A stretch of DNA of 64,000 nt, from contig JANRLW010000064.1 in the NCBI GenBank assembly GCA_033762295.1, forward strand, positions 96,001 through 160,000, written 5' to 3'. This stretch comes from Capsulimonadales bacterium. GTDB lineage: Bacteria > Armatimonadota > Armatimonadia > Armatimonadales > Armatimonadaceae. Made by a program: the position numbers and the translations under genes. Under the pieces are notes generated by a model. That model saw only the letters and a program-made list of their open reading frames with translations, searched no databases and was not told the origin of the DNA. Below, piece after piece: positions 391 through 35,342 of the stretch. Positions within the stretch are counted from its first letter, which is position 1; every line of letters begins with the position of its first letter.

Positions 391-2355
391 CTAACGTCCC
401 TTGATCGCGCCGAAGGTGAGTCCGCGAAGCAGGTGCTTGCGCATCAGGAACGTGAAGAGCGCCGCCGGGATGACGAAGACGACCGCGCGCACGGCGATTC
501 TCTGCCACTCGATGACCCCCCCGCCGAGGACCGCCGTGATCGACGGCGGCGCGGTCAGCAGTTTGCCGGTAGACAGCAACTGTGCCAGCGCGTATTCGTT
601 CCAGGCGTTCAGGAAACAGAAGACGGCGGTCGCCGCCATTCCCGGTACGATCAGCGGCAGCGTCGTCTTGCGAAACGCCTCCAGTCGGGTGTAACGGTCC
701 AACAGGGCGGCCTCCTCGTACTCCGGCGGCACATCGTCGGTGAAACCCTTCATCAGCCAGACCGCGAACGCGCCGTTGACCGCCGCATAGAGCAGGATCA
801 GGCCAAGGTGCGTGTTCAATAGACCCAGTTGACGGAACATCAGGAAGACGGGGACCGCGACGACGACCGGCGGAAGCATCCGGGTCGACAGAATAAAGAA
901 CAGAGCGTCGTTCTTCGCCTTGATCCGGAACCGGGAGAAGGCATAGGCGGCGAGGGTGCCCATGCCGACCGCCAGCACGGTCGACGTAACGCCGATAATC
1001 AGGCTGTTGACCAGTTGACCGGGGAAGTCGCGGGCCGAGGAGGATTCGGGCCGAATCAGCTCGGCGTAGTTATCGAACGTCGGTGTGAACACGAACTGCG
1101 GCGGCATGACGTTTACCGCTTTGAACGGTTTCAGCGAGGTGGCGACGATCCAGTAGAGCGGGAGCATCGACAGGATCAGCGCAACGGTCAGGCCGGCGTA
1201 GGCGAGGTAGGTCTTTGCCCGGTCGGGCAGACGAAAGATCAGCGCGCCGAACACCCCCATGGCCGCCGCGATGCCAAGAGCGACCGGACCGCCGATCGAG
1301 TACAGAAAGGTCAGGAGCAGAAGCGAGCCGAGATAGGGCAACACCTTCGGCAACACCTGACCGATCGGCGACTCTCCGAACCCGGCAAAGAGCGGGGTTG
1401 CGTCCGGCGAGGTCTCGCCCTTGACCCGGTTCAGCAGAAGTAGGTAGAGGTTTGTCAGGCCGATAATCACCAGCAGCACGATATAGGCGAGAGCGCAGGC
1501 GCGCCCCGTATCCCAGTTTCGAAGCGCTTCGCGATAGACCTGGATCGAGACCGTCTCCGCCGAGTTCGCCGTTCCGCCCGCGGTCATGATCCACGCCAGG
1601 TCGAACATTTTGAAACTGTCGAGGGTCCGGAACAACAGGGCGACCATCAGGAGGGGGGCAATCATCGGCAGAGTGATATAGCGGAACCGAAACCAGGCGG
1701 ATGCCCGGTCGACCGCCGCCGCCTCGTACAGGGTGGCGGGAACCGACGATAGACCGGCCAGCGCGATCAGCATGATGAACGGCGACCACATCCACGTATC
1801 GGCAATTACCACCGACCAGAGCGCATGGTCCTTATCGAACCAGTTGATCGGGTTCGCCGGGTCGGACAGGCCGATCTTACTCAGCAGGAAATTCACCAGT
1901 CCGAACGTGGGATCGAGGAGAAACTTCCAGAACAGGCCGACCACCGCCGACGAGAGCATCATCGGGAGGAGAAAGAGGGTGGTGACGATGCTTTTCAGCC
2001 GGAAGGGACGATTGAGCATCAGCGCCAGACCGAAACCGATCAGAAGTTGCAGCCCGACCGCCAGGAGGACGAACAGCGCCGTGACCCGGAACGACTGCCA
2101 GACCTCCGGGCGGGAAAGCATCTCGGTGTAGTTGGCATTGCCCACCCAGACCGGCGCGATCTTCGGCGCGTCCGCCTTATACTTGCAGAACGACAGGTAG
2201 AGCGACCAGAAAAGCGGAAAGACGTTCATCCCGATCAGCAGAACGAGAATGGGCAGAACGAAGAGGTTGGCGACGGCGCGATCGGAAAAGCCGGCGCGTT
2301 TGGGCGCGGGCGTCGTCCGGGCGATCTCTACGGCGTTGGGCACGGTGACGGACAT
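391..2355 (-). CDS. Carbohydrate ABC transporter permease, fused MalF-like + MalG-like (two BPD_transp_1 domains)
   Basis: Likely start MSVTVPNAV (ATG 2355) inside the 836-aa ORF. Two EAA loops (LYEAAAVDRAS..FRYITLP; YEEAALLDRYT..FRKTTLP), many TM helices, and MalF (DTWMWSPF) and MalG (FLNAWNEY) signatures. Confidence 0.88.
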   Translation of the reverse strand: MSVTVPNAVEIARTTPAPKRAGFSDRAVANLFVLPILVLLIGMNVFPLFWSLYLSFCKYKADAPKIAPVWVGNANYTEMLSRPEVWQSFRVTALFVLLAVGLQLLIGFGLALMLNRPFRLKSIVTTLFLLPMMLSSAVVGLFWKFLLDPTFGLVNFLLSKIGLSDPANPINWFDKDHALWSVVIADTWMWSPFIMLIALAGLSSVPATLYEAAAVDRASAWFRFRYITLPMIAPLLMVALLFRTLDSFKMFDLAWIMTAGGTANSAETVSIQVYREALRNWDTGRACALAYIVLLVIIGLTNLYLLLLNRVKGETSPDATPLFAGFGESPIGQVLPKVLPYLGSLLLLTFLYSIGGPVALGIAAAMGVFGALIFRLPDRAKTYLAYAGLTVALILSMLPLYWIVATSLKPFKAVNVMPPQFVFTPTFDNYAELIRPESSSARDFPGQLVNSLIIGVTSTVLAVGMGTLAAYAFSRFRIKAKNDALFFILSTRMLPPVVVAVPVFLMFRQLGLLNTHLGLILLYAAVNGAFAVWLMKGFTDDVPPEYEEAALLDRYTRLEAFRKTTLPLIVPGMAATAVFCFLNAWNEYALAQLLSTGKLLTAPPSITAVLGGGVIEWQRIAVRAVVFVIPAALFTFLMRKHLLRGLTFGAIKGR

Positions 2356-2489: not shown

Positions 2490-3344
2490 TTAGAGGTCGA
2501 CTTCGGGGAGGAAGTATTTGTTGACGATCGTGGTGACGTCGCCGGTGAACTCGTTGTAGCGGGACCACTTGGCATGGCCGTCGAGGTAGGCGATGTTCTG
2601 ACCCTCGGAGTGGCGCGCGTGCAGCGACGGAACAATGGCCGGACCGGTAGAGTTGGGAACGGACGGCCAGAACGCGCTGGCGTTGCTGGCGATGAACGCG
2701 CTGTGATTCGGGTAGTTCGCGAATGCCAATCGCGCCGGTTCCAGGTCCTTGTGCGCGGCATCGGACAGCATGATCTTGGAAGCGGGGCGCGCGACCGAAG
2801 CCAGGGAACGGCCGGACTGACCGCAGCTGCCACCGAAGAAGACACCCTGGTTCCAGCCGTAGCTCAGCGGTTTGCCACGGGACGCATCGCCGACGAAACA
2901 CATGAAGTCCGGATAGCCCCAGGCGCGCCAGGAGCAGACGTTACGGCTCGAACTCCAGAGCACCATCGAGTACTCCCGACTGGTCGGACAGAAGAAGATA
3001 TCGGTGTTCTTCACATAGGGAGCCGTCTTGGTCTCGATTCGCCAGTCCGGGTTCCACTTGCTGCACGGGTCCTTGACCCCCGGCCAGCCGAGGGAGCCGC
3101 CCGAGGACGCATCGATCGGATACAGTTCATCGTAGTCCTGAACATACATCAGGACGGCAAGCCCGATCTGCTTGACGTTGGAAAGGCAGGAAGCCTGGCG
3201 GGCTTTTTCCCGCGCCTGAGCGAAGACCGGGAAAAGAATCGCGGCAAGAATGGCGATGATAGCGATAACAACGAGCAGTTCGATCAGGGTAAAGGCGGCT
3301 CGGGTCCGGGAACCGGAGGGCTTTACGGAAGAAAACGTTCGCAT
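2490..3344 (-). CDS. DUF1559 / prepilin-type N-terminal cleavage-methylation protein with H-X9-DG motif
   Basis: [54 protein letters not shown]-terminal [26 protein letters not shown] before ATG 3344. Confidence 0.93.
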
Positions 3345-3460
3345 CGGGATTCGCTCCTTCGTTTCGGAAACTGAGGGAATACGGTTTCGTTCCCGCGCGG
3401 CGAAAACGAAACCGTATATCATGCTCTGATATTTCAGTGTATCCTTTCGGCGGCGTGACG

Positions 3461-3490
3461 ATGTTAAGGTCACGTTAAGAAACCGTCAGG
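3461..3490 (-). promoter_or_regulatory. Putative Pho-box-like operator (11-bp-period direct repeats) upstream of DUF1559 gene 1
   Basis: + strand GTTAAG at 3463 and 3474 and GTCAGG at 3485 (11-bp period); 20/22 identical to 35321-35342; minus-strand TACACT -10 candidate at 3436-3441. Confidence 0.6.
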
Positions 3491-3520
3491 AAACCGTATT
3501 TTTTTCAGGGCGATCGGTCG

Positions 3521-5974
3521 TCAGGGGGCGATCGCGCTACGGGTCGCGCCGGGATACGGAACGTCCTTACCCTTGATGCTGTGCCAGAGCACCCGGTTCA
3601 GCGTATCCTCCTCGGCAACGGTCAGCCGGTCATATTCGGTGAAGTCCAGCTTCATCGACTCCCGCGCGCCGACCGCCGTCCCCGGGTTCTTCGCCATCAG
3701 GTCGATCCGTGCCGGAAGTCCCGTGTACGGCGTCAGGTCCGCCTTATCGGTGAACGAGGCGAACATGGGCGTGGCCGCCGCGTCGTACTGAGTCATCGGA
3801 GGCAGTCCCAGGATCAGTTCCATGGTTCGCAGCATCGAGCAGGTTGTGTAGAGCGTGCTGTCGATCGTTTTGCGCCGGGTATAGGGAGAGATCACCAGGC
3901 CGATCGTTCGGTGGCTGTCGATATGGTCCGGGCCATTCTGGGCGTCATCCTCGATGACGAAGATCGCGAACTCCTTCCAGACGCTGCTCTTGCTGATCGT
4001 TTCGACGATCTTTCCGAGGGCGACATCGTTGGAGGCGACGCAGGCCTGAGGTGTGAACGTGCCGGGGCGGGTACCGCTCGTATGGTCCTCGCCAAGCGAC
4101 ATGACGGTGAATCGGGGGATCCGATTCTCCCGCTCCATCTCCTTGAACTCACGGATAAAAACATCGGCCTTTTCGAAGTCGCGTCCGGGGGGATTCTCGC
4201 CGGGCTGCACTTTGCCCGAATAGGGTTCACTGACATTTCCGGCGAGCGTCGGATGGTTCCGGTACTCGCCATAGGAGCGGAACGTCAGTCCCTTCGCCTT
4301 ACACGCTTCCCAGAAGTAGCCCGTGACCGGATCGTTGACCGAGGGTTCGTCGGCGGGTTTGCCTTTGCCGGAGTAACCGAGAACCCAGGAGCGCTGGGTG
4401 AATGCGGTCGCATAGGCCGACGTACTCCAGGGGTGACCGTCCTGGGAGACCTCGCCACTGCAGTAGAGGTTGTCCAGCAGTACGAACTCCTCGGCCAGCG
4501 CATGGTGGTTCGGCGTCACGTCCCGACCGAACATGACCAGAGACGGGTCGGCATTGCCCTGCGGCAGATCACCGAAGACCTGGTCGTAGGTACGGTTCTC
4601 CTTAATGATGTAGAGAACGTACTTGATCGGGGACGAATCACCGACCCGATTGGGGATGGCAGTCTTGACGCGGGAGTCCGCCTGCTGTCGCAGCTTATCG
4701 TTATTGTAGGGCGTATTGGCCCGAACGATGCGCGTGTAGTCGGCGAGGGCGCGGTCGTCGGGCGTATCGACGAAGGAAAGGATACCGCGAAGAAGGTTGC
4801 CATGGTGAACGCGGCGCGGCGGGCCGTTCGGTTCGACCCGGGTGACGTTCGTTCCGGTGCCCTGTCCCTTGCCCGTTCCGATAATCACCTTTTTACCGTC
4901 GGGCGTGACGCGCACCGTGGTAGGATACCATCCGGTCGGAATGAAGCCGCGAACCCGGCTACGCCCCCGCTGACTGACATCGGCGACACAGACATTGTTA
5001 TTGTCGGCGTTGGCGACGTACAGCGTTTTGCCGTCCGGGCTGAGGGTGACCGCGTCGGGGGTGGTTCCGCCGGGAGCGTTGGGGGTGAGCGTCGTCCGAA
5101 TGGTCTCCGTCGTCTGACCGGTCTTCAGATCGACGACCGACACCTGATCGGCGCTGCTGCAGGCGACAAACAGGCGGTCATCCTTCGAGAGAGTCAGATC
5201 CGCCGGGTGCTTGCCGACCGTGAACCGGCGTGTCAACTTCGGCTGCTCCGGGCTGGAGACATCGACGGCGACCGCTTCCGAACCGCCCCAGTTGGCGACA
5301 TACAGGGTTTTTCCGTCCGCCGAGAGTTGGCAGGCGCCCGGATGATCGCCGACCGGAACCCGGGCCAGGGGAGTTCCGTCACCGGTCAGAACATACAGAT
5401 GATCGTCGGAGATGTTGGCGGCGAAGAGGGTTTTTCCGTCCGCCGAGATGGCAAGGCCGCCGATACACGAACGTTCCGGGGTATTTCCGGTGAGTTTCAG
5501 ACCCGTTCCGGCCTGCCACGCGCCGTCACCGCCCCGGACGAAAACATGGATGTCGGCGGTTCGATTCTGGGCGCCGCCCGAGACGAAGAGGCGGGAGCCG
5601 TCCGGAGACCAGCAGATACCGTTCCATGACGTGTTCATCGGAAGGGCGGCGACCTCCTTTTCGGAGGCGACATCGATCAGGTGCAGCTCATGGCGGGTAT
5701 AGCCGGAATTGGCGACCGCGAAGAGCTTTCCATCCGGACTGAACGCGCCGGCATAGGGCATATCGCCGACGGAGAGGGGGCGGCCCGCCGGCTGAACGCG
5801 CCATCCGCTGAAGAGAAGACGTCCCGCCCCATCCTCGCCGGGCACGACGATCGGTTTTTTGGAGAAGGGATGCAGCATGCGAGAATTTCGCACATTAGGC
5901 AGAGAGGCGACCGCCGTCAGAGTTCCTGCGGCGGCCAGACCGGCAACGAGAGCAATAGTAGAGGAGCGACGCAT
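3521..5974 (-). CDS. Secreted YncE-type beta-propeller / alkaline-phosphatase-superfamily phosphoesterase fusion
   Basis: Signal peptide; YVTN-like repeats (SPDGKTLYVAN, IPTGWYP); C-terminal IKENRTYDQVFGD, PNHHALA, EVSQDGHPWS, IEDDAQNGPDHIDSHR. Confidence 0.88.
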   Translation of the reverse strand: MRRSSTIALVAGLAAAGTLTAVASLPNVRNSRMLHPFSKKPIVVPGEDGAGRLLFSGWRVQPAGRPLSVGDMPYAGAFSPDGKLFAVANSGYTRHELHLIDVASEKEVAALPMNTSWNGICWSPDGSRLFVSGGAQNRTADIHVFVRGGDGAWQAGTGLKLTGNTPERSCIGGLAISADGKTLFAANISDDHLYVLTGDGTPLARVPVGDHPGACQLSADGKTLYVANWGGSEAVAVDVSSPEQPKLTRRFTVGKHPADLTLSKDDRLFVACSSADQVSVVDLKTGQTTETIRTTLTPNAPGGTTPDAVTLSPDGKTLYVANADNNNVCVADVSQRGRSRVRGFIPTGWYPTTVRVTPDGKKVIIGTGKGQGTGTNVTRVEPNGPPRRVHHGNLLRGILSFVDTPDDRALADYTRIVRANTPYNNDKLRQQADSRVKTAIPNRVGDSSPIKYVLYIIKENRTYDQVFGDLPQGNADPSLVMFGRDVTPNHHALAEEFVLLDNLYCSGEVSQDGHPWSTSAYATAFTQRSWVLGYSGKGKPADEPSVNDPVTGYFWEACKAKGLTFRSYGEYRNHPTLAGNVSEPYSGKVQPGENPPGRDFEKADVFIREFKEMERENRIPRFTVMSLGEDHTSGTRPGTFTPQACVASNDVALGKIVETISKSSVWKEFAIFVIEDDAQNGPDHIDSHRTIGLVISPYTRRKTIDSTLYTTCSMLRTMELILGLPPMTQYDAAATPMFASFTDKADLTPYTGLPARIDLMAKNPGTAVGARESMKLDFTEYDRLTVAEEDTLNRVLWHSIKGKDVPYPGATRSAIAP

Positions 5975-31115: not shown

Positions 31116-33647
31116 CTACCGGGACTTTCGTTCGGCGTCCTCTTCGGAGCGAATCGTCGGAAACGGCCTTTTCCCTTTTGTCAGAGTGAACCAGTTGACG
31201 CGGTTGAGCCAGTAGTGATCCGGCCCGTCGATCCGGCTCCAGTCCAGCGCGACCGTCTTTTCATACCAGTACCGCTCCTGCGCCGTCATTTTCTCCGGTG
31301 ACGGGTTCCTTTCATCCAGGGGGATACGGTTGGGGACGTGCGTATAGGGTGTCAGGTCCGGCTTTTCGGCGAAACAGGTGGTGATCGGTTCCGCCATCGC
31401 GTCGAAGCGGTTCATCGGCTCGAGTCCCAGCATCAAACCGATCGAACGAAGCATGCTGGCGGTCGTATACAGATGGGAATCGACGAAGCGTCGTTTCGTA
31501 TACGGGCTGATCACGAAGTAGGGGACCCGATGACCGTCCACATGATCCGGCAGCGCCTGCCCGTCATCCTCGATGACGAAGATACAGGTATCTTTCCACT
31601 GCGGCGATTTCGTGATCCCCTCGACGACCCGCCCGAGAGCCAGATCGTTGTCGGCATGCATGGCGCGGGGAGTCGGGTACTCGGGGTTCAGCCCTTCGGT
31701 GTGATCGGCGGGCAGGCAGAGGATCATGAGATCGGGAACGGTGTCGGTCCGACTGTACTCACGGTACTCCTTCAGAAAGGCATCCGCCCGCGCCTGGTCG
31801 CTCTGAATCAACGGCCAGTACTGAACGGACGGGCAGATATAGGGCTTGAGCCCGGCGACCGTCGTATCGGCGGTGTAGGTGAATTTCTGGCCGCCGTTCT
31901 TCCGGTCCTCCCAGGCTTCGAACCAGTCCTTCGGGCGATACGGGGCGTATTTGGCGAGCCGGTCGTCGCAGTACTCGCCGTAGACCCGGATCTTCTTGCC
32001 CTTTCGCGCCGCCGCGTCCCAGAGAGCGCCACCCGCCGAAAGGGACATGGCGCAGTCTCCGTCGTCGGGGTAGGTGCGATAGCTGACGTAGAAGTGCTCC
32101 ATATAATCGTTGGCAAGGCTTTGCGTCGACCAGGCGTGTCCGTCGGCGGAGTTGGTCCCGCTCACATACCCGTTGTCGAAAAGCGTGAAGGTGCGGGCCA
32201 GCGCCCAGTGATTCGGCATCCCCGTCTCGCCGATAACGCAGAGCGACGGATCGCCGTTTCCCTCCTTCATTTGACCAAATACCGAGTCGTATGTCTGGTT
32301 TTCTTTAATAATATACAGAACATGCTTCACTGCGCCATTGTAGACAGGGTGCTTCGGGCGGTCCGTGCCTCGGTCCCAGCGGTTGTTGCGGGCGACGATC
32401 CGCGTTTCCGCCTTCAGGTCACGGCGCAGACCCAGCGTGGTGATCGTTCCCTGGAAGTCATGGGGACTGCCCGGATTGCCGTTGCGCGTGTTCTCAACCG
32501 AACCGTTGCCCTTGGAGTTGAGGACGTACGCGGTCCTTCCGTCACGGCTGAGCGTGATGGCGCACGGGAAGTACCCGGTCGGGCGAAAACCCTTCAGCGT
32601 GCCCGACGGCAGATCGACCTCGGCGACCGCGTTATCGCCGCCATTGCAGACATACAGGGTTCGACCGTCCGGAGAGAGGGCGAGCGCGTTGGGCATCGCG
32701 CCGAAGAGCGGGGCGCCGCCGCCCCGGACGGAGATCGTTCGGATGGTTTTTCGCGCCGCCAGATCGATCTCGGTGAGCGTATCGCTCATGCCGTTGGCGA
32801 CGTAGGCGCGGTTGCCATGGACGAGAAGGGCGTTGGGATGAATGCCGACCTCCAGCACGGTCGCCTGACCGGTCGCCCGGTCCACCAGGGACACGGTGCC
32901 GGTCGAAGCGACTCCCCGTTCGTCGGTGACGATATCCTCGTCGCCGCTTTTGGCCGTTCGGTCGTTCGACAGCGGTTTTCGACCGCCCCAGTTACTGACG
33001 ATCAACGTTTTTTCGTCGCCTGAAAGCCGAACGTCGTAGGGCAGGACCTGAACCGGGAGTTCGCGCACCCGCTTGTGTGTCGCGAGATCGACCTCGACGA
33101 CGGCGTTCAGTCCGGCGGCGGCGACGAAGAGTGTCTTGCTGTCCCGTGTCGCGCACATTCCGCCCGGATACGCATTGCGTTTGTCCCCTTCGGCGGCGAC
33201 CGGTATCGTGGCGACATGCTCCAACTGGAGGTCGGCGTACCGGTATTCGATCAGAGCGCCCTGGTCGTTGGTGACGACGACATGCTGGGCGTCCGGCCAC
33301 CAGTTCGACCCGCTATGGTCGCCGGTCCAGAGGACGCCGTGAAAGCCCGCGCTCGCATTCCCGAGCGGGGTACGGGACCGGGCGATGATGCCGGTCGGCG
33401 AGCACATGAACACCTCGCGTTGTGCCAGGACGGCGAAGACGTTCTCCGTCGGATGCAGCGCGAAATCGCTCGGTCGCCCGTTAAAGGCCAACCCGTCGCC
33501 TCGAATCCGCTGTCCGCTGCTGACGATGAAACTGCCGTCGGGCTGTCGGCCCATTTTCGGAGCGCGAAACAGAGCGGCGCCCACGGAAACGACGGCGCAA
33601 AGGGACAGGACGGCGTAAGCCGCCTTCGGGAACGGGCGACGGGGCAT
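31116..33647 (-). CDS. Secreted YncE-type beta-propeller / phosphoesterase fusion (paralogue of 3521-5974)
   Basis: ATG 33647 with RBS TAAGGA; LSPDGRTLYVCNGGDNAV, PTGYFP; IKENQTYDSVFG, PNHWALA, NSADGHAWS, IEDDGQALPDHVDGHR. Confidence 0.88.
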   Translation of the reverse strand: MPRRPFPKAAYAVLSLCAVVSVGAALFRAPKMGRQPDGSFIVSSGQRIRGDGLAFNGRPSDFALHPTENVFAVLAQREVFMCSPTGIIARSRTPLGNASAGFHGVLWTGDHSGSNWWPDAQHVVVTNDQGALIEYRYADLQLEHVATIPVAAEGDKRNAYPGGMCATRDSKTLFVAAAGLNAVVEVDLATHKRVRELPVQVLPYDVRLSGDEKTLIVSNWGGRKPLSNDRTAKSGDEDIVTDERGVASTGTVSLVDRATGQATVLEVGIHPNALLVHGNRAYVANGMSDTLTEIDLAARKTIRTISVRGGGAPLFGAMPNALALSPDGRTLYVCNGGDNAVAEVDLPSGTLKGFRPTGYFPCAITLSRDGRTAYVLNSKGNGSVENTRNGNPGSPHDFQGTITTLGLRRDLKAETRIVARNNRWDRGTDRPKHPVYNGAVKHVLYIIKENQTYDSVFGQMKEGNGDPSLCVIGETGMPNHWALARTFTLFDNGYVSGTNSADGHAWSTQSLANDYMEHFYVSYRTYPDDGDCAMSLSAGGALWDAAARKGKKIRVYGEYCDDRLAKYAPYRPKDWFEAWEDRKNGGQKFTYTADTTVAGLKPYICPSVQYWPLIQSDQARADAFLKEYREYSRTDTVPDLMILCLPADHTEGLNPEYPTPRAMHADNDLALGRVVEGITKSPQWKDTCIFVIEDDGQALPDHVDGHRVPYFVISPYTKRRFVDSHLYTTASMLRSIGLMLGLEPMNRFDAMAEPITTCFAEKPDLTPYTHVPNRIPLDERNPSPEKMTAQERYWYEKTVALDWSRIDGPDHYWLNRVNWFTLTKGKRPFPTIRSEEDAERKSR

Positions 33648-33655
33648 AGGTTTCC

Positions 33656-33988
33656 TTACGGTTTTTTCTTGAAATAGGTGACGGACGTTCCGTACTTTGC
33701 GGTGTGCGACGAGCCGTTCTTCCGATACCAATCCACCACCTCGGCGTCACGCAGGGAGCCGTCGGCATTGAAGAGAAAACCGGAATTTCCTTCTTTTCGC
33801 CGCAGTCGGGCCAGGTCCTCCGGAGTGGAATGGCAGCGGACGCAATAGGCGGTATCGATCACCTGCGGAGGGTTCTCGGCCTGCTCCCTGGCTTCCAGAA
33901 CTTTGACCTCGACGACGCCGATCACGACGGCAGCCAGCGTGAGGGTGATGATGACGGTGTGCGGGGCGAGCTGTTTGGCGGTTTTCAT
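33656..33988 (-). CDS. Small membrane-anchored protein with one CxxCH heme c-binding motif
   Basis: N-terminal TM helix then YCVRCHST; sits 8 bp from the next gene, in operon context. Confidence 0.65.
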   Translation of the reverse strand: MKTAKQLAPHTVIITLTLAAVVIGVVEVKVLEAREQAENPPQVIDTAYCVRCHSTPEDLARLRRKEGNSGFLFNADGSLRDAEVVDWYRKNGSSHTAKYGTSVTYFKKKP

Positions 33989-34042: not shown

Positions 34043-34975
34043 CTAGTTGGTCCAGATACAACCGGCGCTGCTGGGACCGTCGCTGGCGGTACAGGCCCGG
34101 CTGAAGTTATCCTGAACGTACTGAGCGAGATCGCCGCAGCGGATGGCCGTCGGGATCGGAATCTCGTCCCGATAATCGTTGTCCTGGTACCGGATAATGT
34201 AATCCGGGTCGGCGCAGTAGTTGTTGATCAGGCTGGTAAGCGCAGGACGGGCCCAGCGGGCGTTTTCGCCGGAGGCCGCCCAACCGGCGATGTACTTGAC
34301 CGACTTGGCATGGCCGTCGACAAAGGCGATGTTGAAGTTCTGCCGATGGCGCAGGGCGGAGGAAGTGGTGCCGTTGAAGGTGCAGAGCTGGGTCCACATG
34401 CCGAGGTTCATACGCGGGGTATCGTAGGTGTCCCCGAACGCGAACATCTGTGCCGGGGCGACGATTTTGGCGAGGCGGATACCCGGAGCGTAATCGTCAT
34501 CATTATTGACGCTGTCCGCGTAGATGCCTTTCTGCTCGGTCAGACCGCCGCCACGGGAGTTGGCCGGTCCCCAGTTGTAGGCATAGCCGGTAAGGCGGCA
34601 GTTGTTGTAGCTGCCATCGGCGTTCGGCGTGGGATCGCAGCCATGAGCGCCGGGGCCGCCGGCTGCGGCGACATCGAACCCGCCGCGTCGCGCCCGGTCG
34701 TTGCGTTCCGGGCACCAGAGCAGATTGAAGGACTTGAAGTAGGGGACCAGACCGACCCACCAGTCCGTCTTGATGTGCGGGGTGGTCTCGTCGTAGTCCT
34801 GGACGTACATCGCATAGGCCAGACCGACCTGGCGTACGTTGGAAAGGCAGGAGATGGCGCGGGCGCTGGCGCGGGCCTGGGCGAAGACCGGGAAAAGGAT
34901 CGCGGCCAGGATGGCGATAATAGCGATGACAACGAGCAACTCGATGAGCGTGAAGGCGGATTTGAAGCTTCGCAT
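34043..34975 (-). CDS. DUF1559 / prepilin-type N-terminal cleavage-methylation protein with H-X9-DG motif
   Basis: [64 protein letters not shown]. Confidence 0.93.
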
Positions 34976-35077: not shown

Positions 35078-35239
35078 CTACAGTCCCTTCGCCTCCTTTT
35101 TGGCGATCCGGTCGTTGATGGTTGTCGAATTGACCGTGTCGCCGGAAGGCGCAAGGAATCTCCACGCCAGGAAACCGATCAACAGGACGGCGACGGCCGC
35201 GGCGGCGGCAATCATCCAGGGAGCAGGCGTTTCTTTCAT
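35078..35239 (-). CDS. Small single-TM protein (53 aa), not in ORF track
   Basis: MKETPAPWMIAAAAAVAVLLIGFLAWRFLAPSGDTVNSTTINDRIAKKEAKGL*; RBS AGGA; first gene downstream of the Pho-box-like site. Confidence 0.65.
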   Translation of the reverse strand: MKETPAPWMIAAAAAVAVLLIGFLAWRFLAPSGDTVNSTTINDRIAKKEAKGL

Positions 35240-35306: not shown

Positions 35307-35342
35307 ATTGTAACCATCGCATGTTAAGGCCACATTAAGAAA
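35307..35342 (-). promoter_or_regulatory. Putative Pho-box-like operator plus -10 element upstream of DUF1559 module 2
   Basis: Minus strand TTTCTTAATGTGGCCTTAACAT-gcgatggt-TACAAT; CTTAAY repeats 11 bp apart; 20/22 identical to 3461-3482. Confidence 0.62.

Follow-up and report, generated by a model that had tools for sequence, protein, structure and literature searches.

Predicted Pho boxes upstream of two DUF1559 units in an Armatimonadota genome

Two 22-bp sites in the window (the whole analysed stretch of DNA, 64 kb in length) are very probably Pho boxes. Their consensus is SphR-like and suggests a PhoB/RegX3-type activator, which would switch on both downstream DUF1559 units at low phosphate. 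The box itself is of a known type and a textbook regulatory element. It belongs to a class of sites that is found throughout the genome and that recurs before pstS in related genomes.

The two sites in the window

The 22-mers at positions 3461-3482 and 35321-35342 are identical in 20 of 22 positions and have the same orientation, each 5' of a unit on the minus strand that contains a DUF1559/N-methyl gene. On the coding strand, CTTAAY occurs twice per site with a distance of 11 bp (3463-3479 and 35323-35339). The -10 candidates at 3436-3441 and 35307-35312 are located 19 and 8 nt from the respective 22-mer. Most of this had been stated in an earlier, sequence-only reading of this DNA, which also described TTAA as scarce. 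The count of TTAA in the window is 31. The features that are relevant for the two loci are listed below.

391..2355, minus strand: fused ABC permease with two BPD_transp_1 domains, 3' of DUF1559 gene 1
2490..3344, minus strand: DUF1559 gene 1, 284 aa, with N-methyl pilin motif and H...DGH motif
3379..3417, minus strand: strong, near-perfect, long hairpin within the leader predicted for DUF1559 gene 1; unique in the genome
3436..3441, minus strand: -10 candidate of site 1 (TACACT), 22 nt past the last TTAA, without -35, geometry as at pstS
3463..3479, minus strand: box of site 1, two CTTAAC units with 11-bp period, predicted Pho box (18.9 bits with a matrix from non-DUF1559 sites only)
3485..3490, minus strand: degenerate third unit of site 1, 4/6 match, one period upstream (weak 9.0-bit match at 3492)
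3521..5974, minus strand: gene for beta-propeller plus phosphoesterase, ending just 5' of site 1, without a box of its own
31116..33647, minus strand: gene for beta-propeller plus phosphoesterase, last gene of predicted unit 2
33656..33988, minus strand: 110-aa ORF with CxxCH, between DUF1559 gene 2 and the phosphoesterase gene, conserved in L054 (2537-2842)
34043..34975, minus strand: DUF1559 gene 2, 310 aa, predicted to have a long N-terminal helix and a globular head
35078..35239, minus strand: 53-aa ORF with one hydrophobic (membrane) segment, first gene of unit 2, conserved in L054
35270..35291, no strand assigned: TGTGAC-N10-GTCACA palindrome just 3' of the predicted start of unit 2, one of 2 such in the genome
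35307..35312, minus strand: -10 candidate of site 2 (TACAAT), 11 nt past the last TTAA, with the -35 position under the box
35323..35339, minus strand: box of site 2, CTTAAT plus CTTAAC with 11-bp period, predicted Pho box; the orthologous locus of another genus also has a box

In a matrix scan of the window, sites 1 and 2 alone scored above 10 bits (20.6 and 20.3, respectively). Site 2 does not have a third unit. Identity in 20 of 22 positions is not rare by itself, as it is reached by 13 pairs of 22-mers in the window. The two sites are not a special pair, as first supposed, but two of 76 sites in the genome. The earlier argument from phosphoesterase genes also holds in part. Such genes do adjoin both loci physically, but as an indication of a regulon the argument is valid for site 2 only, because the phosphoesterase gene at site 1 ends 5' of the box and is itself unboxed. 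No terminator was found between this gene (3521-5974) and site 1, and neither a terminator nor a sigma-70 promoter (-35/-10 pair) was found at window positions 3300-3700.

For DUF1559 gene 1, 40 relatives yielded no clear orthologue, only paralogue-level matches with about 40-46% identity, and its best matches in relatives are boxed in 4 of 28 cases. We infer that the permease at 391-2355 is co-transcribed with it. The permease is an orphan, followed by two zinc dehydrogenases, and neither a binding protein nor an ATPase for it was present among the neighbours scanned. The arm sequence of the 3379-3417 hairpin recurs twice, with an 11-bp period, at 3479-3497.

Conservation is better at site 2. 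The orthologue in another genus (L054), which is 76% identical, has retained the box as well as the small ORF and the ORF with CxxCH. DUF1559 gene 2 is part of a clade of six members, all of them boxed. Nine of its 22 homologues are boxed (two of the 22 entries have less than 100 nt of upstream sequence), and the second-closest homologue, with 60% identity, is unboxed. The CxxCH ORF is possibly a c-type haem protein, going by this motif; it gave no Pfam match. Its product is small and looks secreted. The TGTGAC-N10-GTCACA palindrome, which was not seen at the orthologous locus L054, is possibly a second operator or a leader stem.

A genome-wide class of boxes and its candidate regulator

The genome (5.16 Mb, 62% GC, 4364 genes by our own gene calls, covering 87.5% of the DNA) contains TTAA-N7-TTAA 88 times. 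For the other 20 spacers between 0 and 20, the counts range from 2 to 22, with a median of 7. The 88 occurrences merge to 76 sites, none of which (0/76) is located inside a called gene. Unlike the 20/22 match, the motif class is therefore far beyond chance. A stricter pattern had 64 matches in this genome versus 1 for a wrong spacer, and was present in 40 of 41 genomes. Among the 73 sites that could be oriented, 67 face a gene start; where a start is present on one side only, the fraction is 36/40. The units are direct repeats in tandem with an 11-bp period, as in a Pho box. Two perfect-core units are found at 70 of the 76 sites, and arrays of 3-5 units at the remaining 6.

A -10-like hexamer was found at +11, +22 or +23 in 40 of 67 sites, compared with a mean of 2.2 and a maximum of 9 in shuffles and 0-3 at off-phase offsets; the three offsets were chosen from the same data, and the starts are predicted ones. 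In 38 of the 40 sites with a phased -10, a -35 is absent (no match of 4/6 or better). Judged from the sequence, box phasing and the missing -35 are the anatomy of promoters dependent on a tandem-binding activator. The +11 spacing occurs mostly before phosphatase-type and other non-DUF1559 genes, the +22/23 spacing before pstS and most DUF1559 genes.

The genes behind the boxes suggest what such an activator would respond to. The sequence-only reading had proposed a matrix scan, in which hits before pstS, phoU or phoD would speak for a Pho box. The scan placed the motif before pstS-pstC/A-pstB-phoU, which bears out the proposal for pst; the single phoD was unboxed (0/1). An array of five units is present 5' of phnD-phnD-phnC-phnE-phnG-phnH-phnI, and further boxes precede genes for purple acid phosphatase, phytase-like esterase, GDPD-like, tyrosine-phosphatase, and propeller-phosphoesterase proteins. 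Of the 11 PF04185 phosphoesterases, six belong to boxed units (5 according to an operon walk, and 1 with a start that was called too early). For metallophosphoesterases, the fraction is 4/23, with 19/23 unboxed. No PhoX match above the cut-off was found in the genome. Together with conservation in relatives, the boxes at pst, phn, and phosphatase genes support the idea that both sites of the window belong to a shared Pho regulon. The beta-propeller plus PF04185 phosphoesterases comprise eleven paralogues, and this family was flagged in only 2 of 14 control genomes.

The box is not confined to phosphate genes. It also precedes glnA, an ANTAR regulator gene with PII, and signalling genes. Perfect boxes at C59:7995 (glnA, L028) and C45:7049 (ANTAR response regulator plus PII, L026) point to possible phosphate-nitrogen cross-talk. 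PadR-family regulator genes are boxed at C73:62464 and C84:21351 (L130), and the PadR unit on C84 runs on into a DUF1559 gene and a metallophosphoesterase gene.

In relatives, the box was found before pstS at 22 of 29 loci, and at none of 29 downstream controls. At two of the unboxed pstS loci, it is located instead before the first gene of the pst operon, which encodes a porin. In a neighbouring family (L270-L274), the gene at the head of this operon encodes an SLH-domain porin O/P and has its own box.

The genome encodes five strong OmpR-type effector domains. We regard the protein encoded on contig C36 as the candidate regulator. Its best NCBIfam match is PhoB, with 237 bits, under the curated cut-off of 296. 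The best matches of the neighbouring kinase, PnpS, WalK, and PhoR, are all under the cut-off as well (234 versus 334 for PhoR). The best PDB match of the regulator is RegX3; PnpR-PnpS and SenX3-RegX3 are described as Pho systems in the sections of PMC4415409 that were available. The C36 regulator is present in all 41 of 41 genomes. A box precedes the gene of its orthologue at 11 of 30 loci, in three genera; in this genome, the gene has no box. Among 80 farther homologues, 14 are encoded within 3 kb of pst/phoU, none of them from Armatimonadota. As the scores remain under the cut-offs, the PhoB type is assigned by context, that is, by the boxes of the orthologues and the proximity to pst, and not by the curated cut-off.

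By analogy with the PhoB family, PhoR together with PstSCAB-PhoU would sense low phosphate and phosphorylate the C36 regulator. The latter would then bind two units head-to-tail and recruit sigma-70 RNA polymerase. At site 2, the box would lie over the -35 position, as in E. coli; at site 1, it would lie one turn upstream, as at pstS.

The 20/22 identity could also be a relic of a recent duplication of the promoter or locus. Among the 73 oriented boxes, the pair is one of 5 that reach 20/22 out of 2628 pairs, compared with 0.5 expected from column frequencies, and both loci combine a DUF1559 gene with a propeller-phosphoesterase gene on one contig. However, there is no identity beyond the box edges, and -10 spacing and gene order differ. 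At the protein level, identity is 32% between the DUF1559 products and 35% between the phosphoesterases, and on the tree the two DUF1559 genes do not group as sisters. Three other 20/22 pairs span different contigs. With identity confined to the box, divergent proteins, and non-sister genes, selection acting on a common site accounts for the match better than a recent copying event. A recent duplication is thus largely refuted and unlikely. Slightly less likely still is that another regulator of the OmpR family uses the box and happens to control pstS as well. PmrA, SaeR, and CiaR also use TTAA-type 11-bp repeats, four more strong OmpR-type effector domains are encoded in the genome, the C36 protein is below the PhoB cut-off, and nitrogen and signalling genes are among those boxed. 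Yet the strongest arrays are those of phn and phosphoesterase genes, the C36 orthologue is itself among the boxed genes, and the other four OmpR regulators are unboxed and, bar one atypical protein, better matches to metal or Mtr families. Symmetric dimers of LysR or MarR type read palindromes, and TTAA-N7-TTAA has a self-complementary 15-bp core; five reverse-oriented boxes before DUF1559 genes would also fit such a reading. It is nevertheless highly improbable, and we rejected it on the grounds of strand asymmetry and arrays: the flanks are asymmetric, with Y-TTAA-Y on one strand, 6 of the 76 sites are extended to 3-5 units, and in 67 of 73 cases the box is oriented with the gene.

DUF1559 genes and the Pho box

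By motif, the genome contains 123 DUF1559-like genes, 105 of them operon heads. In order to assess the boxes before these genes, we used a matrix that was built from 38 non-DUF1559 sites only. Among DUF1559 operon heads, 37 of 105 were preceded by a score of 14 bits or more, compared with 35 of 2813 among the other heads; the threshold lies in the gap of a two-peaked score distribution and was picked after the scores had been seen. AT-rich promoters were rejected as the cause of this enrichment, since the comparison with AT-matched heads gave 29/105 versus 9/622. Other spacers (0-2/105 versus 40) and shuffles (maximum 1) also exclude AT-richness. With operon context, 43 of the 123 DUF1559 genes are in boxed units, and about half of the boxes in the genome precede DUF1559 genes.

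Five boxes before DUF1559 genes are oriented in reverse (C79:20514, C79:24965, C70:40297, C84:14533, and C108:20864; L116-L119). Three of them directly follow a TTGACA/TTGACT hexamer, and for this reason the reverse boxes may be sites of repression. DUF1549/DUF1553 proteins (PSCyt, planctomycete-type) are encoded after boxed DUF1559 genes on C107, C30, and C125 (L040, L124, L125), with DUF1501 in two of these cases.

The DUF1559 products have a pilin N-terminus, with PF07963 over the cut-off and profile matches to pilin N-termini (best E 3e-14). A predicted model has a helix at 10-60. Gly before Phe is the rule for the pilin N-methylation motif; both DUF1559 proteins of the window have Ala at this position. 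Foldseek returned no match to the predicted model at E <= 0.001, an Atlas search with the DUF1559 proteins returned DUF1559/N-methyl clusters alone, and NCBIfam at 1e-8 returned no family for either window protein. The genome encodes pilus assembly machinery (9 PF00437 ATPase matches and 1 PF01478 peptidase), and no box was found at assembly ATPase or prepilin peptidase genes in the 8 neighbourhoods scanned.

The association of the box with pilin-like genes extends to relatives. A box and a pilin motif within 60-260 nt were found in 31 of 41 genomes, versus 2 of 41 when three wrong spacers were combined. In the phylum, the combination occurs in 53 of 151 genomes, a count that comes without a wrong-spacer control. 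With the strict pattern, no boxed pilin-motif gene was found in 98 of the 151 genomes. In two genera of the same family the strict pattern gave 0/5 and 0/4, with 24-80 pilin-motif genes per genome.

Some boxed DUF1559 genes of relatives are linked to pst. In six regions, which were selected for close listed coordinates of box and pstS, one to three separately boxed DUF1559 genes are located inside the pst cluster. These regions also contain pstS-C-A-B, a metallophosphoesterase gene, and a gene for porin O/P, which is fused to SLH in five of them; one region has a phytase gene in addition. Around 44 pstS genes of 36 relatives, we counted 29 pilin-motif genes, 22 of them boxed, where 9.5 were expected from genome averages. 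A boxed DUF1559 gene beside pstS was found in 12 of 36 genomes. Since these represent three genera, and nine of the twelve genomes come from one, the linkage reflects few independent events. There is no boxed DUF1559 gene at pstS in the present genome. Three pst-linked DUF1559 genes of G017 have boxed best matches here, one of which is then followed by the same phytase gene. For ten pst-linked DUF1559 genes of the other family, the matches in this genome are weak, and in 8 of 10 cases the matched gene is unboxed.

If the sites are Pho boxes, the induced DUF1559 proteins may be pilin-like surface subunits that help to capture organic or bound phosphate. The captured phosphate might then go to the co-induced phosphatases and the Pst importer; both steps are less firm than the binding of the regulator proposed above. 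Extending this, we tentatively suggest, as a rather doubtful proposal, that DUF1559 proteins form a library of exchangeable substrate-catching pilins, which would share a single pilus machine and would each be induced by the regulator for the nutrient in question. The Pho-boxed third would then be the phosphorus-foraging set, binding organic or mineral phosphate at the surface for phosphatases, porin O/P, and PstSCAB. If this is true, a pilus-based nutrient-capture system would be spread across Armatimonadota.

The boxes may also be Pho boxes without any phosphorus role of the DUF1559 proteins, which we consider a real possibility, if short of an even chance. Phosphate shortage would then be a general cue for surface remodelling (attachment, biofilm, or scavenging of any polymer), and paralogues would be free to acquire or lose the box. 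On a quick tree with 122 paralogues, the boxed label changes 24 times, no residue separates boxed from unboxed paralogues after correction, 35 of 42 boxed genes are without a phosphoesterase gene behind them, and several are followed by DUF1549/DUF1553/DUF1501 cytochrome-type modules. A phosphoesterase gene follows the DUF1559 gene in only 7 of 42 boxed versus 3 of 81 unboxed cases (p = 0.03). Non-phosphate genes are also known to belong to Pho regulons (PMC1906773, in the parts available). On the other hand, the label is clustered on the tree, as shuffled labels required 32.4 changes and none of 500 shuffles reached 24. The pst clusters of relatives contain boxed DUF1559 genes beside phosphatases and porin O/P, and the DUF1559-phytase pair is common to G017 and this genome.

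Significance and comparison with known systems

The box delineates a predicted Pho regulon in a phylum that has received little study, and would link about one third of a DUF1559 family of about 120 members to one easily applied condition. Starving cultured Armatimonadota of phosphate would offer a direct route to the induction, localisation, and assay of DUF1559 proteins, for which the members of the pst-linked clusters are the best targets. Should these proteins capture phosphorus substrates, pili would serve soil and freshwater bacteria as foraging devices for specific nutrients.

The closest likeness of the box is to that of SphR, the PhoB of Synechocystis PCC 6803, whose Pho box is CTTAACCT (PMC1906773) and whose unit consensus is PyTTAAPyPy(T/A) (PMC4195498), according to the available portions of both papers. 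The unit consensus, the 11-bp period, and the location before pstS and phosphatase genes are shared. In contrast to the boxes described here, 70/76 of which have two units, at least three units are reportedly needed for SphR. The phylum is also a different one, and about half of the present boxes are located before DUF1559 genes; in PMC1906773, the main text nowhere uses the word 'pili'.

The likeness to E. coli PhoB consists in two 11-nt direct repeats and, as at site 2, a box about 10 bp before the -10 (excerpts of PMC4415409 and PMC1906773). However, the unit sequence is different here, the regulator gene is unboxed in this genome, and there is a second geometry, one turn further upstream, at pstS, most DUF1559 genes, and site 1. 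A regulator-kinase pair and a pst-phoU operon are shared with PhoB/PhoR-type systems, including SenX3-RegX3 (PMC4415409; PMC1906773, same excerpts).

Very large DUF1559/SBP_bac_10 (PF07596) paralogue families with the N-methyl pilin motif are known from Planctomycetes, where the proteins have been described as putative solute-binding proteins and the family has been treated as restricted to Planctomycetes/PVC (PMC2754498, PMC10632474, PMC4807772). In contrast to the phosphate control predicted here, the available text of these papers reports responses to salt, cold, and heat, or essentiality, and no phosphate control. A published link of DUF1559 or of Armatimonadota pilin-like genes to phosphate control was not found in the literature covered (mostly non-subscription papers, main texts without supplements).

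With regard to pilin-type proteins, the nearest parallel is Hxc type II secretion of LapA/LapB in Pseudomonas aeruginosa, in which low phosphate induces the pilin-type HxcT together with phosphatases (PMC9769906, from the part available). Hxc, as described there, is one dedicated machine, whereas in the present genome dozens of boxed pilin-like subunits are scattered, and the assembly ATPase and prepilin peptidase genes are unboxed.
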